Part shown: positions 12,342 through 18,311 of the stretch, in pieces | How the letters are laid out: each line of letters opens with the position of its first letter | How positions within the stretch are numbered: position 1 is the stretch's first letter | From: an uncultured Gemmatimonadaceae bacterium | GTDB taxonomy: Bacteria; Gemmatimonadota; Gemmatimonadetes; Gemmatimonadales; Gemmatimonadaceae | NCBI GenBank assembly: GCA_963817955.1 | Contig: CAWFQK010000004.1 | Span: 1,184,001-1,248,000 of the forward strand | Direction: 5' to 3' | DNA: 64,000 nucleotides | Translations under genes and position numbers: made by a program | Notes under the pieces: model-generated | Databases searched by the model: none | What the model was told of the DNA's origin: nothing | Seen by the model: only the letters and a program-made list of their open reading frames with translations

Positions 12342-13202
12342 CTATGCGTCTAACTCGATTCCCGCCGCACGTACGTTTTCTTCCAGGTGCTTCACCTGTG
12401 ATGTGCCGGGAATGACGAGCATGGCGGGTGAATGGGCGAGGAGCCAGGCGAGGGCGACTTGGAGGGTGCTCACGCCTTTTCGCTTCGCAATCTCCTGAAC
12501 CCATGACGGTGCGCCTCCCTCGAGCGAGCCGGCGGCGAGCGGAAACCAGGGGATGAAGGCCATGTCGTGCTCCTCGCAGTAGATGACGACATCTTCCCAC
12601 TGCCGCTCTGCGACGTTGTACTTGTTCTGCACAGAGGCGATGGGCACCACCTTGCGCGCCGCCTCGATCTCGTCAACACCGACCTCGGACAGACCAACGT
12701 GCCGCACCTTGCCTTCGCGCACGAACTCGGCGAGCGCACCGAATTGCTCGTCGGCCGGCACCTTCGAGTCTATCCGGTGGAGCTGCCATAGATCGATCCG
12801 GTCGAGCTTGAGGCGGCGCAGGCTTCCGTCGAGCGCCTTGCGCAGATACTTGGGATCGCCGTTCGGGGTCCATTTGTTCGGACCGGGCCGCTCGAGGCCG
12901 CCCTTCGTCGCGATGACGAGCCCCGCTGGGTAAGGACGCAGCGCCTCAGCGATGAGATCTTCGGAGACGTACGGTCCGTACGAGTCTGCAGTGTCGATGA
13001 AGTCGACGCCAAGTTCTGTGGCACGCCGCAGGACGCGGATCGCTTCGTCGCGATTTGCGGGCTGCCCCATGATCCCATGTCCGGTGATGCGCATGGCGCC
13101 ATACCCCATGCGATTCACCACAAGGTCGCCGCCGATGGTGATCGTTCCCGCCTGAGCGGCTGGCGTCTTTGCGCGGTCGTTGGTTGCGTCCTGTGTTTGC
13201 AT
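12342..13202 (-). CDS. Aldo/keto reductase
   Basis: [43 protein letters not shown]...HLEEN. AAGGAG RBS precedes the ATG at 13202. Confidence 0.92.
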
Positions 13203-13336
13203 CACGAATGCTCCTTGCGTGCTGACGTGTGGGCGCCAAGGTGCACGAAACGATCCTTCGCCGTAAGGGAAGCGGTAACGAATTCCCAACAAGAACCCGA
13301 TAGCGGCCCGATCGCCGTCCTCTCCACCTTCCGCGC

Positions 13337-14158
13337 ATGACTTCAACACGCGATCGCGATTACGTGCTCGGCACGCATGACGAAGAGGTGATGCGCCTGG
13401 GCCTGCAGCACAACGTCTGGCGGCCACGCGCGCTGGCAGCGTGGTATCGCGCGGGCTTCAACGTTGGACAGACCATTCTCGACGTCGGCAGCGGACCGGG
13501 GTATGCAACCCTCGATCTCGCGGAGCTCGTAGGACCAACCGGACGTGTCATAGCGGTCGATCGGTCGCGCCGATTTCTCGACGCGCTGGAGGAGCGCCGC
13601 GATGCCCGTGGACTCGAGCATGTCCGCGTGATCGAAGCCGACCTCGACGACGTGTCCTTCGACGCGGCGAGCGCGGACGGGGCGTGGTGTCGCTGGGTGC
13701 TCGCCTTTGTGCCGCGCCCACGCGACCTGCTGGCGCGCGTCGCACGTGCGCTCAAACCAGGTGCCACGTTTGCAATCCATGAATACTTCGACTACGCCGC
13801 GTGGCATGTCATCCCACGCTCGCCGCTGTTCGAGGAATTCGTCAGCGCGACGATCGACAACTGGCGGCGCAGCGGAGGCGAACCGGACATCGGACTCGAG
13901 CTGCCGCGCTGGCTCGAGGAACTCGGTTTCGAGATCACAGTCATCCGGCCGATCATCGACGTGATCTCCGCCCGCGATTATGCCTGGCAATGGCCGACAA
14001 CCTTCATGCAGATCGGCTTGCAGCGGCTCGCCGAAACGGGCGCGATTCCACAAGATCGCGCCGCATCGATCGGCGCCGAGCTACGTCAGATTTCCGACTC
14101 GACAACGGCACGAATGATTACGCCTGGAGTGCTCGAGGTGGTGGCGCGGAAACGGTGA
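13337..14158 (+). CDS. Class I SAM-dependent methyltransferase
   Basis: Motif [19 protein letters not shown]. The 3' end overlaps the convergent hom gene by 41 nt. Confidence 0.9.
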
Positions 14159-15275
14159 GCGGCGTTGGCCCGCGCTCGGCAATGAGGCGCAGCAGGTCGT
14201 TGTACACGCCGGCGGCGGTAACCGCCGGCCCGGCTCCTGGCCCGGTGATGACGAGTGGCTGCGCCTTGTAGCGCCTCGTGGTGAAGGAGAATTGGTTGTC
14301 GGTCCCATGCAGCAGGCTGAGCGGATCAGTCGCCGGTACTTCGGCCAGTCCCACGCGGACACTGCGACGGGTGGCGCGAGCGCGATAACGCAACACCGCA
14401 CCGCGCGAACGCGCCGCCTCCACTCGCGCCGCCCAAACAGCGTCGAGCTCAGGCATGCGTGCCAGGAATTCGTCGATCGCTACGTCCTGCAACGACCGCG
14501 GAACGAGGGATTCGACGCGCACCGCCTCGAGGTCGCCGCGGAACCCGATGATGCGTCCGAGAATCAGCGCCTTGCGCGCAACGTCGAGTCCAGACAGATC
14601 GACGCGCGGATCAGGCTCGGTGTATCCGGCCGCAATCGCATCACGCAGCGCCGTGGAGAAGCTGGTGCCTCGTCCGAGTTGGCCGAAGACGAAACCGAGC
14701 GTGCCCGACGGACAACCCTCGATGGCACTCACACGATCGCCGGCGTCGATCAGTTTGCGCAGTGTGTCGATGACCGGTAGTCCGGCGCCGACGGTGGCTT
14801 CGTGCAGAATTTCAGCACCGCCCGCCCGCGCGATTTCATGAAGCTGGTCGACACGCGCTTGCGCGCCGGCGATCGGCACCTTGTTCGCCAGGATGACGTC
14901 CCACCCACGTTCGAGCACGATCTCGAGGATGTGCTGCGTATCAGCGGCCGTTGCGTCGACGATCACCGGGCGTCCCGCAAGTCTCGCCGACATGAACGCG
15001 ACGGCGTCGGCGGGACTGGCGCGCAGACCGAGCGCGGAGGCATGCAGTGGCTGCCCGCTCTTCTTGTGCGCACAGAGCGCGATCAACGAGCGACGCGACA
15101 GGCCTTGGGGGTCGATCACATAGCCGGTTCGGTCCACCAGTCCGCATACCCGAAGGCGCGACGAAATGCCGTTCTTCGTGGAGGTGAGCTGGCCGAGCAG
15201 CTCTCGGCCGATCGACCCGACGCCCAACAGCACGACGTCGGTACTTCGGAATTCGTATCTGGATAGGTCGCTCAT
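14118..15275 (-). CDS. hom: Homoserine dehydrogenase (monofunctional, similar to the HSD domain of ThrA/MetL)
   Basis: GVGSIG Rossmann motif, ILANK, EATVGAGLPVI, SGTLGF, GYTEPDPRVDLSGLDVARK, GPGAGPAVTAAGV. GAGGAG RBS at 15287-15282 supports the start at 15275. Confidence 0.9.
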   Translation of the reverse strand: MSDLSRYEFRSTDVVLLGVGSIGRELLGQLTSTKNGISSRLRVCGLVDRTGYVIDPQGLSRRSLIALCAHKKSGQPLHASALGLRASPADAVAFMSARLAGRPVIVDATAADTQHILEIVLERGWDVILANKVPIAGAQARVDQLHEIARAGGAEILHEATVGAGLPVIDTLRKLIDAGDRVSAIEGCPSGTLGFVFGQLGRGTSFSTALRDAIAAGYTEPDPRVDLSGLDVARKALILGRIIGFRGDLEAVRVESLVPRSLQDVAIDEFLARMPELDAVWAARVEAARSRGAVLRYRARATRRSVRVGLAEVPATDPLSLLHGTDNQFSFTTRRYKAQPLVITGPGAGPAVTAAGVYNDLLRLIAERGPTPLTVSAPPPRALQA

Positions 15276-15301
15276 GTCGTTCTCCTCGATCGTTGGCGCA
15301 C

Positions 15302-15338
15302 AAAGAAAAACCCCCGATTCTCGCGCGAGAATCGGGGG
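15302..15338 (-). terminator. Intrinsic terminator / attenuator hairpin in the hom leader
   Basis: Palindrome CCCCCGATTCTCGCGCGAGAATCGGGGG (15311-15338) followed on the minus strand by TTTTTCTTT, about 27 nt upstream of the hom ATG. Confidence 0.88.
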
Positions 15339-15367
15339 GGGTGAACAGCGGATGCGTGCTCGATGAG

Positions 15368-15460
15368 CTATGTGCGCATGCGTCGTCGTCCGTCCGTTCC
15401 TCTCGCGAGGCAAGCGGCCGCCATGGACATTCGCATCTGCATTTGACACATCGAGATCAT
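15368..15460 (-). CDS. Putative Met-rich attenuator leader peptide (30 aa: MISMCQMQMRMSMAAACLARGTDGRRRMRT)
   Basis: Read directly: ATG ATC TCG ATG TGT CAA ATG CAG ATG CGA ATG TCC ATG ... TAG. Six Met among the first 13 codons, 7 in total. The stop lies about 30 nt before the terminator. The RBS is weak. Confidence 0.72.
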   Translation of the reverse strand: MISMCQMQMRMSMAAACLARGTDGRRRMRT

Positions 15461-15483
15461 CGATCGTCTTTGTTGATTGCATG

Positions 15484-15522
15484 AAAACAGAAAAGCCCGG
15501 ACGAGTGACAGCCGCCGGGCTT
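15484..15522 (-). terminator. Terminator-like hairpin directly 3' of the SAM-II-like aptamer
   Basis: Stem AAGCCCGG/CCGGGCTT (15522-15515 / 15500-15493) followed by TTCTGTTTT on the minus strand. Confidence 0.7.
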
Positions 15523-15527
15523 GTCGC

Positions 15528-15578
15528 GTTTTAGCACTTTGTTTTACGTGGCGGCAATGGGCGGCAAATCACCACGAG
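15528..15578 (-). ncRNA. SAM-II (SAM_alpha-type) riboswitch aptamer
   Basis: Minus strand: CGUGGUGAUUUG-ccgccca-UUGC-c-GCCACG-UAAAACAAA-gu-GCUAAAA. P1 CGUGGU/GCCACG, GAUUU, UUGC, A-rich linker and GCUAAA match the SAM-II consensus as I recall it. It lies upstream of a Met-pathway gene. Confidence 0.8.
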
Positions 15579-15595
15579 CATTCAGTTGTCCGGAG

Positions 15596-15624
15596 ACATT
15601 AACCCAATTCCAACGATCGGTCAA
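15596..15624 (-). promoter_or_regulatory. Putative sigma70 promoter for the hom leader
   Basis: TTGACC (15624-15619), 17-nt spacer, TAATGT (15601-15596). The predicted start site falls about 13 nt before the aptamer P1. Confidence 0.6.
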
Positions 15625-17270
15625 GAGTGCACTGGCGCTGTACGCCCGCCGGTGGTGTCGGATGGCTGCGTATTGGCGCGTAGCATCTGCTCCAACTCTC
15701 TCACACGAGATGGCGACCAGTCAGCGAGGCACTGCGCCCGGACACGCGCGTACACCGGGCCATCCCCTACGTCGCGGCACGCGGCCTCGCGGTCGTTCAT
15801 CCACTTCCGTTGCTCGACACGCAGTTGCTCAACGGATGGCGGGTCGGGGTCGCCGGGCTGCGCATTTGCTCGACGTCGCAACGCCGAGATCAGCCGCTGG
15901 TAGACCGCGTTGAGCGGCCCATCGTTGCGCTCGATCGCCGCGGACAGACAGGCGCGCTGGTCCGCCGCGTCCGGCGCGTCGCACGCGGCGTCCGTGATCG
16001 CGGGCTTGGTCACGAGCGTGTCGAGCGAGACCGGCGGTGTGGGCGCCGGCATGCGGACTATCGGCGGGGTAATGCCGGGCTCGTGACGCCGCGTCGTGGG
16101 CGGCGCGATCGGATTTATCGGATACAGCGGAATGACGGTCGGCGGAATGCTCGCTGGCGGCGCGACCTGCTGCGGCAATGGTGCCATTGGTTGCGTCTCC
16201 GGCGTTGGGATTGGTGAGACGATCACCGGTTGCTGCGGCATGGGTGCGGGTGGCGAGTCGACGATCGCCGTGTCGCCCGGATGCAGCGCAATGTCGCCCG
16301 ACGCGAGGCTGCTGGTGTCGTTCAGCGTGCTACCGATCTCGTCGGAAGACGAGCGTTGGCGCAACAGCACCCCCAGCACACCGAGGATCGCGATCACCGC
16401 CACCGCCGTCGCGACGCGTGCGCCGAATCCGTACGGCCGCTTCACGATGATCACTGCGGGTTCGTCGGACGGCCCCGCCGGCATGGTGGATGCCGCAGCG
16501 GCCGGCATCGCCACCTCGACCGCAGCGCCAAGTGGGGCGAGCGACGCGATGTACGCCGCGACATTGCGCGGCGGAGCGCCGCGGTCGCAACGGATCAACG
16601 CGTCGGTTTCCTCTATGACGTGCGCCGGCAGGCCGGGACGCACGTCGGCGAGTGCCGGCGCCCGAGGTTCATTGCGGCGATGCCCGCTGAGCATCTCGTA
16701 CGCCAACCGCCCGATCGTTGCCGCGTCGTCGCAGGCGTCGGGGAGCGCGCCGGCGCGCAGCGGAACGGGATCGAGCGCCAGCAGCACCCGACCGCTTCCC
16801 TGCTGGAACACGAGCGCGTCCTCCGACACGTAGCGATGCACCACGTTATTGGTGCGCGCCCACTCGAGCACCGATTGCACCTGCTCGAGCGTCGTCGCCA
16901 CACGAGGCAAGGGCATAGGACCGGCGGTATTCACGAGCTGTCCGAGCGTGGAGCCTCGCACGCGCGCGCGCACGATCGCGAATGCGCCGTCGTCCAACCA
17001 CCGCCCCTCGATGACCGGAATCAGATTCGGATGGCGCAGCACGGTCAGCGCGCGCGCGTCCGCTGCGAAATGCGTGAGGCTGTTGTGGTCCCCGGTGCTG
17101 CCTGAACCGCTGGGCGGGCGCACCATCGTGATCGTGACGTCGCGGTTGAGCGCGAGATGCCGCGCGAGATACGTCCGCGAGTCGCCTGATCGGTGGAGCT
17201 CGGTCAGGATCTGATAATCATTCTCGAGCGTGCCCCACGCGGGAAACCGATCGTCCGTCGGGCTCTGCAT
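15621..17270 (-). CDS. Membrane pseudokinase: degenerate Ser/Thr kinase fold + TM + Pro-rich linker + LprI/DUF1311-like domain
   Basis: Kinase-like YLARHLALNRDV, LRHPNLIPV, VVHRY, IGRLAYEMLSG. TM helix VATAVAVIAILGVLGVLL. C-terminal C..QRACL..LNAVYQRL..EQRKW..R..AC..CL. Start uncertain (17270/17276/17285). Confidence 0.75.
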   Translation of the reverse strand: MQSPTDDRFPAWGTLENDYQILTELHRSGDSRTYLARHLALNRDVTITMVRPPSGSGSTGDHNSLTHFAADARALTVLRHPNLIPVIEGRWLDDGAFAIVRARVRGSTLGQLVNTAGPMPLPRVATTLEQVQSVLEWARTNNVVHRYVSEDALVFQQGSGRVLLALDPVPLRAGALPDACDDAATIGRLAYEMLSGHRRNEPRAPALADVRPGLPAHVIEETDALIRCDRGAPPRNVAAYIASLAPLGAAVEVAMPAAAASTMPAGPSDEPAVIIVKRPYGFGARVATAVAVIAILGVLGVLLRQRSSSDEIGSTLNDTSSLASGDIALHPGDTAIVDSPPAPMPQQPVIVSPIPTPETQPMAPLPQQVAPPASIPPTVIPLYPINPIAPPTTRRHEPGITPPIVRMPAPTPPVSLDTLVTKPAITDAACDAPDAADQRACLSAAIERNDGPLNAVYQRLISALRRRANAQPGDPDPPSVEQLRVEQRKWMNDREAACRDVGDGPVYARVRAQCLADWSPSRVRELEQMLRANTQPSDTTGGRTAPVHS

Positions 17271-17283
17271 GTGCATCCTGCGC

Positions 17284-17322
17284 AAAAAAAACCAGTGGCG
17301 CCCGTCCTTCGGACGCCACTGG
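17284..17322 (-). terminator. Intrinsic terminator of ilvE
   Basis: Stem CCAGTGGCG/CGCCACTGG followed by T8 on the minus strand, 35 nt after the ilvE stop. Confidence 0.85.
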
Positions 17323-17357
17323 CAGAGTCATGCGGAAACCGTGCCCGCTCTTCTCAA

Positions 17358-18311
17358 TTACGCGGAAGCTTTGGCGGCGCGCTCGGCGCGAACATTGGTC
17401 AGCCAGCCGTACGGGTCTTCCGTCGCCCCGCGGACGAGGTCGAGGAAGTGCTGCTGAATCTGTGTCGTGATGGGCCCGCGGCGGCCCGCGCCGACCTGAA
17501 TGCGGTCGACGCTGCGCACGGGCGTGACTTCCGACGCCGTGCCAGTGAGGAAGATCTCGTCCGCCGTGTACAGGAACTCGCGCGGCAACTCCTGCTCGCG
17601 CACCGGAATGCCCATGTCCTGCGCGAGCGCGATGACCGTGTTGCGTGTGATGCCGTGCAGCAGCGTGCCGTTGATGGTTGGCGTGTACAGCGTGCCCTTG
17701 TGGACGAAGAACACATTCTGTCCGGAGCCTTCGCTGATCATGCCGCCTGGCGTCAGGGCGATGCCCTCGGCGTAGCCATTGCGCAACGCCTCCATCTTGA
17801 CGAGCTGGCCGCTCAGATAGTTGCCGGCCACCTTCGCCATGGTGGGAATGGTGTTCGGCGCCATGCGCGCCCACGTCGAGACGCAGGCATCGACGCCGTT
17901 CTCCAGCGCGCCCTCGCCGAGGTACGCGCCCCACGGCCAGCACGGGATGTAGACCTCCACCGGGCTGTCACCCGGGACCATGCCAGACGCGCCATAGCCG
18001 CACAGCACCATGGGGCGGATGTAGCACGAATCAACGTTGTTGCGTTCGACAACCTCGCACGCCGCGGCGACGAGCTCGTCGATCGAGTACTTCACGTCCA
18101 TCCGGTAGATCTTGCAGGTGTCGAGTAGCCGCTGGAGGTGATCTTCGAGACGGAAGATCGCTGGACCACGCGGGGTGCTATAGCATCGAATGCCTTCAAA
18201 TGCGGCGGAACCGAACTGCATCGAATGCGCGAGCACGTGGACGGTTGCATCTTGCCAGCGGATGAACTCGCCGTCGCGCCAGATCCACTCGGTCTCGTTG
18301 AGCTTGGCCAT
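17358..18311 (-). CDS. ilvE: Branched-chain amino acid aminotransferase
   Basis: FEGIRCY, IFRL.DH..RL, YIRP, AKVAGNY (PLP Lys), EGSGQN, LHGITR, DEIFLTGTASEVTPV. Confidence 0.95.
   Translation of the reverse strand: MAKLNETEWIWRDGEFIRWQDATVHVLAHSMQFGSAAFEGIRCYSTPRGPAIFRLEDHLQRLLDTCKIYRMDVKYSIDELVAAACEVVERNNVDSCYIRPMVLCGYGASGMVPGDSPVEVYIPCWPWGAYLGEGALENGVDACVSTWARMAPNTIPTMAKVAGNYLSGQLVKMEALRNGYAEGIALTPGGMISEGSGQNVFFVHKGTLYTPTINGTLLHGITRNTVIALAQDMGIPVREQELPREFLYTADEIFLTGTASEVTPVRSVDRIQVGAGRRGPITTQIQQHFLDLVRGATEDPYGWLTNVRAERAAKASA

Follow-up and report, generated by a model that had tools for sequence, protein, structure and literature searches.

How is hom, the gene for homoserine dehydrogenase, controlled in an uncultured Gemmatimonadaceae bacterium in which a short open reading frame (ORF) crowded with methionine codons stands ahead of it? 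The locus lies on the minus strand of a stretch of 64,000 nucleotides (nt), hereafter the window (positions 1,184,001 to 1,248,000 of contig CAWFQK010000004.1, assembly GCA_963817955.1). Textbook methionine control relies on repressors (MetJ/MetR), S-adenosylmethionine (SAM) riboswitches and T-boxes, and a methionine leader-peptide attenuator is unexpected because AUG doubles as a start codon. A sequence-only reading of this region had nevertheless proposed that a terminator here is gated by the Met codons of a leader peptide. That proposal stands in part: relatives strongly support its core, since the ORF, its Met run, a hairpin and the terminator all recur in them, while the antiterminator shows no covariation. 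Nor is Met control riboswitch-free here: a SAM-II riboswitch and its own terminator (T1) are found directly upstream, outside the positions that the reading covered. We consider it likely that the locus carries a classical ribosome-mediated attenuator reading Met codons, in series with the SAM-II riboswitch. Its geometry is that of trp-type attenuators, with a rod whose left arm holds the Met codons and whose right arm holds the candidate antiterminator strand, followed by a second terminator (T2). The parts are found in the following order, all on the minus strand; several were read from the minimum-free-energy (MFE) fold, and SD stands for Shine-Dalgarno sequence.

15596..15624 (minus): promoter-like TTGACC, 17 nt, TAATGT, read by eye
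15514..15585 (minus): SAM-II (SAM_alpha, RF00521) riboswitch aptamer, from a covariance-model match
15483..15522 (minus): intrinsic terminator T1, AAGCCCGG ... CCGGGCTT plus TTTTCTGTTTTC, with a hairpin of -15.9 kcal/mol
15368..15460 (minus): leader ORF of 30 codons plus TAG, MISMCQMQMRMSMAAACLARGTDGRRRMRT, from the ORF list and homologous ORFs
15422..15460 (minus): Met-codon run, 6 ATG in 13 codons, the proposed sensing codons and left arm of the 1:2 structure
15389..15420 (minus): hairpin H and G-rich tract, from the alignment and the MFE fold
15378..15436 (minus): stem P1, AUGCG (15436-15432) with CGCAU (15382-15378), from the RNAalifold consensus and the MFE fold
15359..15455 (minus): outer stem P0, CUCGAUG (15455-15449) with CAUCGAG (15365-15359), from the MFE fold
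15343..15361 (minus): small hairpin between the ORF stop codon and T2, from MFE folds
15302..15338 (minus): intrinsic terminator T2 (regions 3:4), CCCCCGATTCTC-GCGC-GAGAATCGGGGG plus TTTTTCTTT
15282..15287 (minus): GAGGAG, the SD of hom, with an anti-SD duplex of -8.9 kcal/mol
14118..15275 (minus): hom, homoserine dehydrogenase, 385 amino acids, the regulated gene, from Pfam and NCBIfam

In the mechanism that we propose, the SAM-II aptamer would act through T1, and at high SAM transcription would end near position 15483. A second stage would act on transcripts that run past T1 and carry the 30-codon ORF, with six Met in its first 13 codons. If the ORF is untranslated or quickly translated, the leader would fold on itself (P0, P1 and H) and hide the G-rich strand at 15404-15389, upon which T2 would form and hom would not be transcribed. 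If charged Met-tRNA is scarce, a ribosome would stall in the Met run and hold the left arm of the fold; the freed G-rich strand would then pair with the emerging C-rich 5' arm of T2, forming the antiterminator, and RNA polymerase would read into hom. Since two terminator stages stand in series, hom would need both low SAM and poor charging of Met-tRNA. We infer from the parts described below that the ORF is translated, that ribosomes stall on it, that the antiterminator pairs and that the first stage responds to SAM.

Methionine codons in a single reading frame

The peptide given by the sequence-only reading is encoded exactly, at 15460..15368, beginning 22 bases past T1, with seven in-frame ATG codons that start at 15460, 15451, 15442, 15436, 15430, 15424 and 15379. 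Its contention that these ATGs are improbable by chance was borne out when we counted, in the 4.53-Mb genome (64% G+C), some 7.24 million stop-free stretches of 13 codons in six frames. Just 10 of these, at four places in the genome, hold at least six ATG; the leader is one of the four places, and its ATG run exceeds chance.

Our set comprises 45 leaders, or 39 once redundant ones are removed. In these 39, 227 of 229 ATG triplets fall in the frame of the ORF, and the leaders use ATG at 183 per 1000 codons, compared with 18.6 in the long ORFs of the genome. The Met run lengthens and shortens in whole-codon steps, the codons between the ATGs are variable, and the number of Met codons ranges from 2 to 16 across leaders. 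The ORF closes with TAG in 23 leaders, TGA in 13 and TAA in 3, always 21-34 nt ahead of the T2 stem.

The longest of these runs is seen at locus L013 (1600-1823), where 16 of 46 codons are Met, by way of in-frame tandem ATGCGAATGACC-like units. As these repeats keep the frame, the number of sensing codons would evolve through repeat slippage. A second peculiarity of codon usage concerns CGA, which accounts for 45% of the Arg codons in the 39 leaders and 12% of those in the long ORFs of the genome; in the window it occurs at 15431-15433 and 15383-15388. The excess may slow decoding, or may merely reflect RNA pairing (AUGCG with CGCAU).

Fold of the leader RNA and the case for ribosome control

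The leader of the window, 173 nt long, folds to -67.7 kcal/mol (z of -2.72), an energy equaled by 1 of 200 shuffles, and the whole of it forms one rod in which P0, P1 and the local hairpin are all present at minimum free energy. Two structural claims of the sequence-only reading were upheld here, namely a competing local hairpin, found at 15410-15399, and a terminator after the leader, found at 15338-15302 as T2, whose 12 pairs, eight of them G-C, are capped by a GCGC loop and give -22.8 kcal/mol.

Conservation of this fold was assessed in an alignment (A2) of 29 of the 31 distinct close leaders, L115 and L120 being left out as near-copies of L108. Taken together, P1, H, the post-stop hairpin and T2, which make up the terminated state, are 92.7% paired in A2 and have eight pairs changed on both sides, a figure that none of 500 shuffles reaches. 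Both H and T2 covary. The 5' arm of H (15420-15408, region 1) pairs with 15403-15391, that is, columns 62-74 with 79-91, where 95.6% of the cells are paired, and its pair 74:79 is compensated (CG in 20 sequences, UA in 7, GC in 1, UG in 1), while T2 has 6 of its 11 aligned pairs changed on both sides and 97.2% of its cells paired. P1, whose AUGCG falls inside the Met run, is also 97.2% paired and almost invariant. P0, which joins codons 2-4 of the ORF to the bases just past its stop, is paired in 87.4% of the cells, compared with 19-42% in slid controls, and has one double-changed pair; the equivalent of the post-stop hairpin, UCGAGCG...CGCUCGA, is 77.8% paired. A further covariance alignment (A3) was contaminated by antisense hairpin matches and, after filtering by hand, served for viewing only. 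The 3' half of the ORF holds, after a short hairpin, a CGGRCBGG motif; 34 leaders read it in phase 1 and 3 in phase 2, and the exact motif is absent from 8. Since this motif is read in two phases, the 3' half of the ORF is kept as RNA and not as peptide.

The proposed antiterminator joins the G-rich strand at 15404-15389 (region 2) to the 5' arm of T2. In A2 this pairing involves 92.5% of the cells, compared with 49-68% when slid, and the duplex averages -21.7 kcal/mol between cognate strands and -19.8 kcal/mol between non-cognate ones, a small difference; its mean z against shuffles is -1.6. The sequence-only reading had assembled its antiterminator from three complementarities, all of which are present: CGCGAGA (15407-15401) with UCUCGCG (15330-24), GAACGG (15399-94) with CUGUUC (15348-43), and CGGA (15392-89) with UCCG (15352-49). 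The first matches the pairing that is conserved in relatives, although it lacks covariation and is weak in the window; the other two use the post-stop hairpin of this particular genome and are not kept in relatives.

That reading had also suggested folding with ribosomes masked. Equilibrium folding of this kind gave no separation between a leader with a stalled ribosome, one with a ribosome at the stop codon and a free one, and was set aside in favor of an energy-gain measure, which scores the pairing of the T2 5' arm before the T2 3' arm exists, with the stalled ribosome masked at the last Met or Cys codon of the run. The mean gain is -5.0 kcal/mol without a ribosome, -9.3 with a stalled one and -6.2 when it has reached the stop codon, and stalling improves it in 34 of 39 leaders. 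In the window, a ribosome that stalls with the last Met codon of the run in its A site (15424) is predicted to cover about 15439-15412, which would remove the partners of the G-rich strand. Because the equilibrium folds fail to separate the states, the switch would have to be kinetic, with termination as the default in which the rod forms first.

Several of our results weigh against control by a ribosome reading Met codons. In the window, the energy gain is -2.3 kcal/mol with no ribosome, -6.8 with a stalled one and -6.6 with one at the stop codon, so that the strand is freed to the same extent whether the ribosome stalls or reaches the stop codon. Equilibrium folds of truncated transcripts form the antiterminator even without a ribosome. 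Across the 29 sequences of A2 the antiterminator has no double-sided changes and does no better than column shuffles, and when compared with composition-preserving shuffles its duplex reaches 0.05 or less in only 18 of 39 leaders, with a z of only -0.61 in the window. Moreover, a second frame is open over the span of the ORF in 30 of 39 leaders, and openness of the ORF alone therefore proves little. Initiation is equally awkward. None of the 28 leaders scored has an SD before the ORF, and the median energy of the leader anti-SD duplex is +0.85 kcal/mol, compared with -8.9 for hom and -2.5 for the background of the window, which confirms a caveat already entered by the sequence-only reading. 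Met starvation is also expected to impair translation initiation on the leader itself.

Upstream riboswitch, genes served and spread of the leader

A cmscan search of positions 13000-18000 with Rfam (E up to 10) matched the full RF00521 model (1-79) at 37.1 bits, just above the gathering score of 36, with an E of 7.4e-6. No amino-acid leader family of Rfam (Trp, His, Leu, Thr and others) matched in this range, which returned only SAM_alpha and weak chance matches. Of the 31 genomes of the genus, 28 have SAM-II, with 44 matches and scores of 31.8-46.3 bits for the copies of relatives, and so do all 151 sampled genomes of the family; the riboswitch is found before hom, metX, metY, metH and others, with T1 directly after the aptamer. 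The T1 arm GCCCGGCGGC is kept in all aligned loci. On sequence grounds, T1 would be the expression platform of the riboswitch, and SAM binding and pseudoknot formation are likewise predictions.

The 5' arm and loop of T1, CCGGCGGC (15511-15522), are complementary to GCCGCC repeats in the aptamer loop (15551-15565), and this complementarity is kept in all loci. Pairing of the two is likely to be the antiterminator of the SAM-free state; if so, the SAM-II switches of the family, with an aptamer in 151 of 151 genomes, would be transcriptional throughout. At four loci (L020, L022, L023 and L027), SAM-II precedes a ThrC-like gene that carries a CxxC...CxxC extension at its N terminus.

The genes served by the leaders all belong to the Met/Cys branch: hom, metX of both the succinyl and the acetyl type, metY, aspartate kinase, an SsuE-like flavin mononucleotide (FMN) reductase and a RimK/LysX-like ATP-grasp gene. 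Which codons a leader uses goes with the gene: ahead of hom, succinyl-type metX and aspartate kinase they are nearly pure Met, and ahead of metY, acetyl-type metX, the SsuE-like reductase and the ATP-grasp gene they are Met and Cys, both TGC and TGT; the hom leader of the window also holds two Cys codons. In a relative (G014; L265, G014:C110:1600-6200), the genes served by the leader are succinyl-type metX, metB and hom, whose stop and start codons overlap, and by sequence the leader-hom unit of the window looks as if it were such an operon from which metX-metB had been deleted. The genome of the window has a second tandem device on the minus strand of another contig (L031/L175, G000:C2:374462-374754), which runs from a promoter through SAM-II, T1, a Met/Cys leader (MRLTPLAMPMCMCLMCVPPYGRDGRVPRTRAGD) and T2 to metY and acetyl-type metX.

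The RimK/LysX-like ATP-grasp gene (N terminus ..YHEHPDWFRPLF..) recurs at L017, L159 and L176, and at L019 and L021 without a leader. It stands behind SAM-II riboswitches or behind Cys-rich leaders such as MRCCSNLMCCMCPCPCC and MTRAQTMCCCCMCLMC, and its product probably acts in sulfur amino-acid metabolism.

Riboswitch and leader together find matches in 32 of 61 related genomes, 10 of them full-length at 70-85% identity. Within the genus, the leader occurs in 13 of 31 genomes, 12 recovered by a DNA search with the leader alone and one, the diverged L015, by way of its riboswitch. Of 51 distinct riboswitch loci that were parsed, 16 carry a Met/Cys-rich short ORF and then a second terminator; riboswitches before metH are never among them, and within the genus those before metX have a leader in 11 cases and lack one in 3 (L011, L016 and L018). 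Metagenomes, probed with a pattern of 21 specified bases from the Met run, yielded 27 matching contigs. The riboswitch motif is present in all 25 that include upstream DNA, T2 in all 25 with at least 200 nt downstream (23 by regular expression, L100 and L110 by eye), and the MetX signature LGGIS[AT] in all 24 with 400 nt downstream. The sequencing runs listed for this DNA are four soil DNA runs, with small shares of it, and no RNA run is among them.

Outside the genus, a BLAST search of 401 family genomes with the leader returned only spurious short matches, and the 11 loci inspected all lie in coding DNA. No Met/Cys-rich ORF was found at the 25 best-scoring parsable SAM-II loci of the family; the leaders sit behind aptamers that score lower than these. 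A covariance model (R1) built from 29 leaders matches 21 of 151 genomes of the family at E up to 0.01. Genomes flagged as unpublished (G061, G086 and G087) enter the family-wide counts for BLAST, SAM-II and R1, and nothing else here depends on them. We inspected 16 new R1 loci, leaving out four partial matches, and recognized 10 as real leaders (L155, L157, L158, L159, L162, L163, L165, L167, L169 and L176); five were spurious. At L160 (G079:C290:761-913), which lies behind a riboswitch, the hairpin and second terminator are kept without a Met-rich ORF, and this leader may have decayed or may work in another way. In a phylum-wide sample, R1 matches 9 of 151 genomes and adds five new loci, two of which (L260 and L261) are real and belong to a second family; the other three are ordinary gene-end terminators. 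The search across the phylum for a Met-rich short ORF and terminator before hom or met genes, which the sequence-only reading had suggested, finds them in the genus, in other genera of the family and in a second family.

The leader keeps its place ahead of Met genes, after the terminator of the riboswitch and before a second one, and distant members have just two or three Met codons in a longer ORF. Three leaders (L163 and L165, in genus g25, and L176) have their terminator and a promoter directly upstream and no SAM-II, and the ribosome-read switch can therefore, as we see it, stand alone. We lean towards regarding all these leaders as an undescribed class of attenuator in the Gemmatimonadaceae and a sister family, which would sense charged tRNA through Met or Met and Cys codons on a common chassis (H, the GACGGACGGG tract and the CCGGUCCUCUC terminator arm), with a codon mix tuned to the gene and SAM-II in series. 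Were this class real, Met-pathway genes would compute "low SAM AND low Met-tRNA(/Cys-tRNA)".

The product of hom matches Pfam Homoserine_dh (3.4e-45) and NAD_binding_3, the homoserine dehydrogenase models of NCBIfam agree, and its closest relatives in named records are hom genes of Gemmatimonadaceae metagenome-assembled genomes (80, 77 and 74% identity). Since a convergent methyltransferase gene (13337-14158, plus strand) overlaps its 3' end, hom is the sole gene served in the window. Its true start is the ATG at 15275, preceded by GAGGAG. The mechanical ORF list instead fuses an ATG at 15482 in frame with hom, giving 454 amino acids (14118-15482, minus strand) through the leader and T2, and gene callers could mis-annotate the start of hom through this in-frame region in the same manner. 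Upstream lies an LprI-domain gene that ends at 15621 and whose stop codon (15623-15621) overlaps the promoter-like -35. A TTGAC box is found at an equal distance before the riboswitch in relatives; a stricter consensus scan of the region returned no promoter.

Alternative explanations and relation to known systems

Four other explanations were weighed, and taken together the frame-true runs of Met and Cys codons, the way the codon mix fits the gene served, and the RNA motif read in two phases argue against them all. The leader could be an untranslated structured RNA, either a second element responsive to a ligand or protein or a mere stabilizer of T2, with its AUGs kept for pairing. Such an RNA would account for the missing SD, for a 3' half conserved as RNA, for the folding of the leader into one rod and for the use of AUGCG of the Met run by P1. 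P1, however, takes only one of the six or seven ATGs, and pairing does not explain why 227 of 229 ATGs share a frame, why the run grows and shrinks in whole codons with freely varying codons in between, or why every leader has a start codon and a stop codon, the latter varying in type, at a fixed distance from T2. No Rfam family except SAM-II matches either, and we regard this explanation as unlikely. A translated ORF might also gate T2 as a general sensor of translation capacity, its AUGs serving as alternative SD-less starts, a landing pad for ribosomes. The lack of an SD, the G-poor unstructured stretch that precedes the first AUG in all leaders and the ability of any in-frame AUG to start translation are all in keeping with this. 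Against it, sister leaders before sulfur-assimilation genes swap AUG for Cys codons, which are unable to start translation, distant members keep only two or three Met codons inside a longer ORF, and every gene served is in the Met/Cys pathway; a general sensor is quite unlikely.

In the trp leader of Bacillus, TRAP binds (G/U)AG repeats, and the AUGs of our leaders, mostly spaced by 6 nt, resemble TRAP sites, so that the choice of hairpin could be set by a TRAP-like protein bound to the AUG or UGY triplets that recur every 3-6 nt. This is highly improbable, because triplets spaced by 3, 6 and 9 nt, in runs that mix AUG, UGC and UGU, suit codons better than a single binding motif, and no TrpBP (PF02081) gene was found in the 94%-complete genome with a search whose Bacillus subtilis control was positive. 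The protein would, moreover, have to bind at low Met, as binding of the left arm would release the antiterminator. It is scarcely credible that the leader encodes a small Met-rich peptide with a function of its own, such as metal binding or oxidant scavenging, and that the terminator is incidental: the peptide is conserved within the genus, but the conserved 3' half of the ORF is read in two frames in different leaders, its Met count varies from 2 to 16 and it invariably sits ahead of Met genes with the terminator of the riboswitch on one side and a second terminator on the other.

An attenuator that reads Met codons has partial counterparts in other bacteria. A 2010 survey (Naville and Gautheret, PMC2965389), in its excerpted text, places the leader-peptide systems known until then only in Proteobacteria and Actinobacteria and adds new ones in Firmicutes; no Met leader was found in that text. 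In the cys/cbs operons of Actinobacteria, Cys-codon leader peptides were predicted by genome comparison (Seliverstov et al. 2005, PMC1262725), and the excerpted account reports no conserved terminator hairpin, proposes Rho instead and finds no conserved RNA element before methionine operons. As far as that account goes, our leaders resemble these in being short ORFs with runs of sulfur-amino-acid codons before sulfur-amino-acid genes, but the actinobacterial ones have Cys runs only, whereas ours have Met or Met/Cys codons, a strong intrinsic terminator and an upstream riboswitch. In Sinorhizobium meliloti, metZ and metA are preceded, as excerpted from Scheuer et al. 2022 (PMC9373788), by SAM-II and a Rho-independent terminator, with the translation start of metA far downstream of the aptamer. 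The succession of a SAM-II aptamer and an intrinsic terminator before Met genes is the same as here, although the excerpted text describes neither a Met-codon leader ORF nor a second terminator. We found no Met-codon leader attenuator in the full-text literature searched, subscription journals being largely outside that search.

If our interpretation is correct, Met, and through the sister leaders Cys, would join the amino acids that are sensed by ribosome stalling, and classical attenuation would extend to the Gemmatimonadota, apparently without an SD. The leader-peptide attenuators of enterobacteria (trpL, hisL, leuL, thrL, pheL and the ilv leaders) are the closest in design. With trp-type attenuators our leader shares a short ORF rich in codons for the end product, a 1:2 hairpin over the regulatory codons, a candidate 2:3 antiterminator and a 3:4 intrinsic terminator directly before a biosynthetic gene; it differs in the codons sensed (AUG, or AUG and UGY), in the lack of an SD, in the riboswitch upstream and in its phylum. 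The mgtA leader of Salmonella combines a Mg2+ riboswitch with mgtL, a proline-codon-rich ORF that lies inside the riboswitch, in one joint decision. There, as here, one leader couples a sensing RNA with a short ORF whose speed of translation reports an amino acid, but the leader of hom has two separate devices in series, each with an intrinsic terminator of its own. Serial arrangement is, for its part, a feature of tandem riboswitches, such as SAM-II with SAM-V or two different aptamers, in which two terminator-based switches likewise give AND-type control; unlike in these, the second switch proposed here would be read by a ribosome rather than being a ligand-binding aptamer, which would make the leader of hom a natural two-input gate that joins a riboswitch to a ribosome-read switch and senses both the free cofactor pool and tRNA charging.

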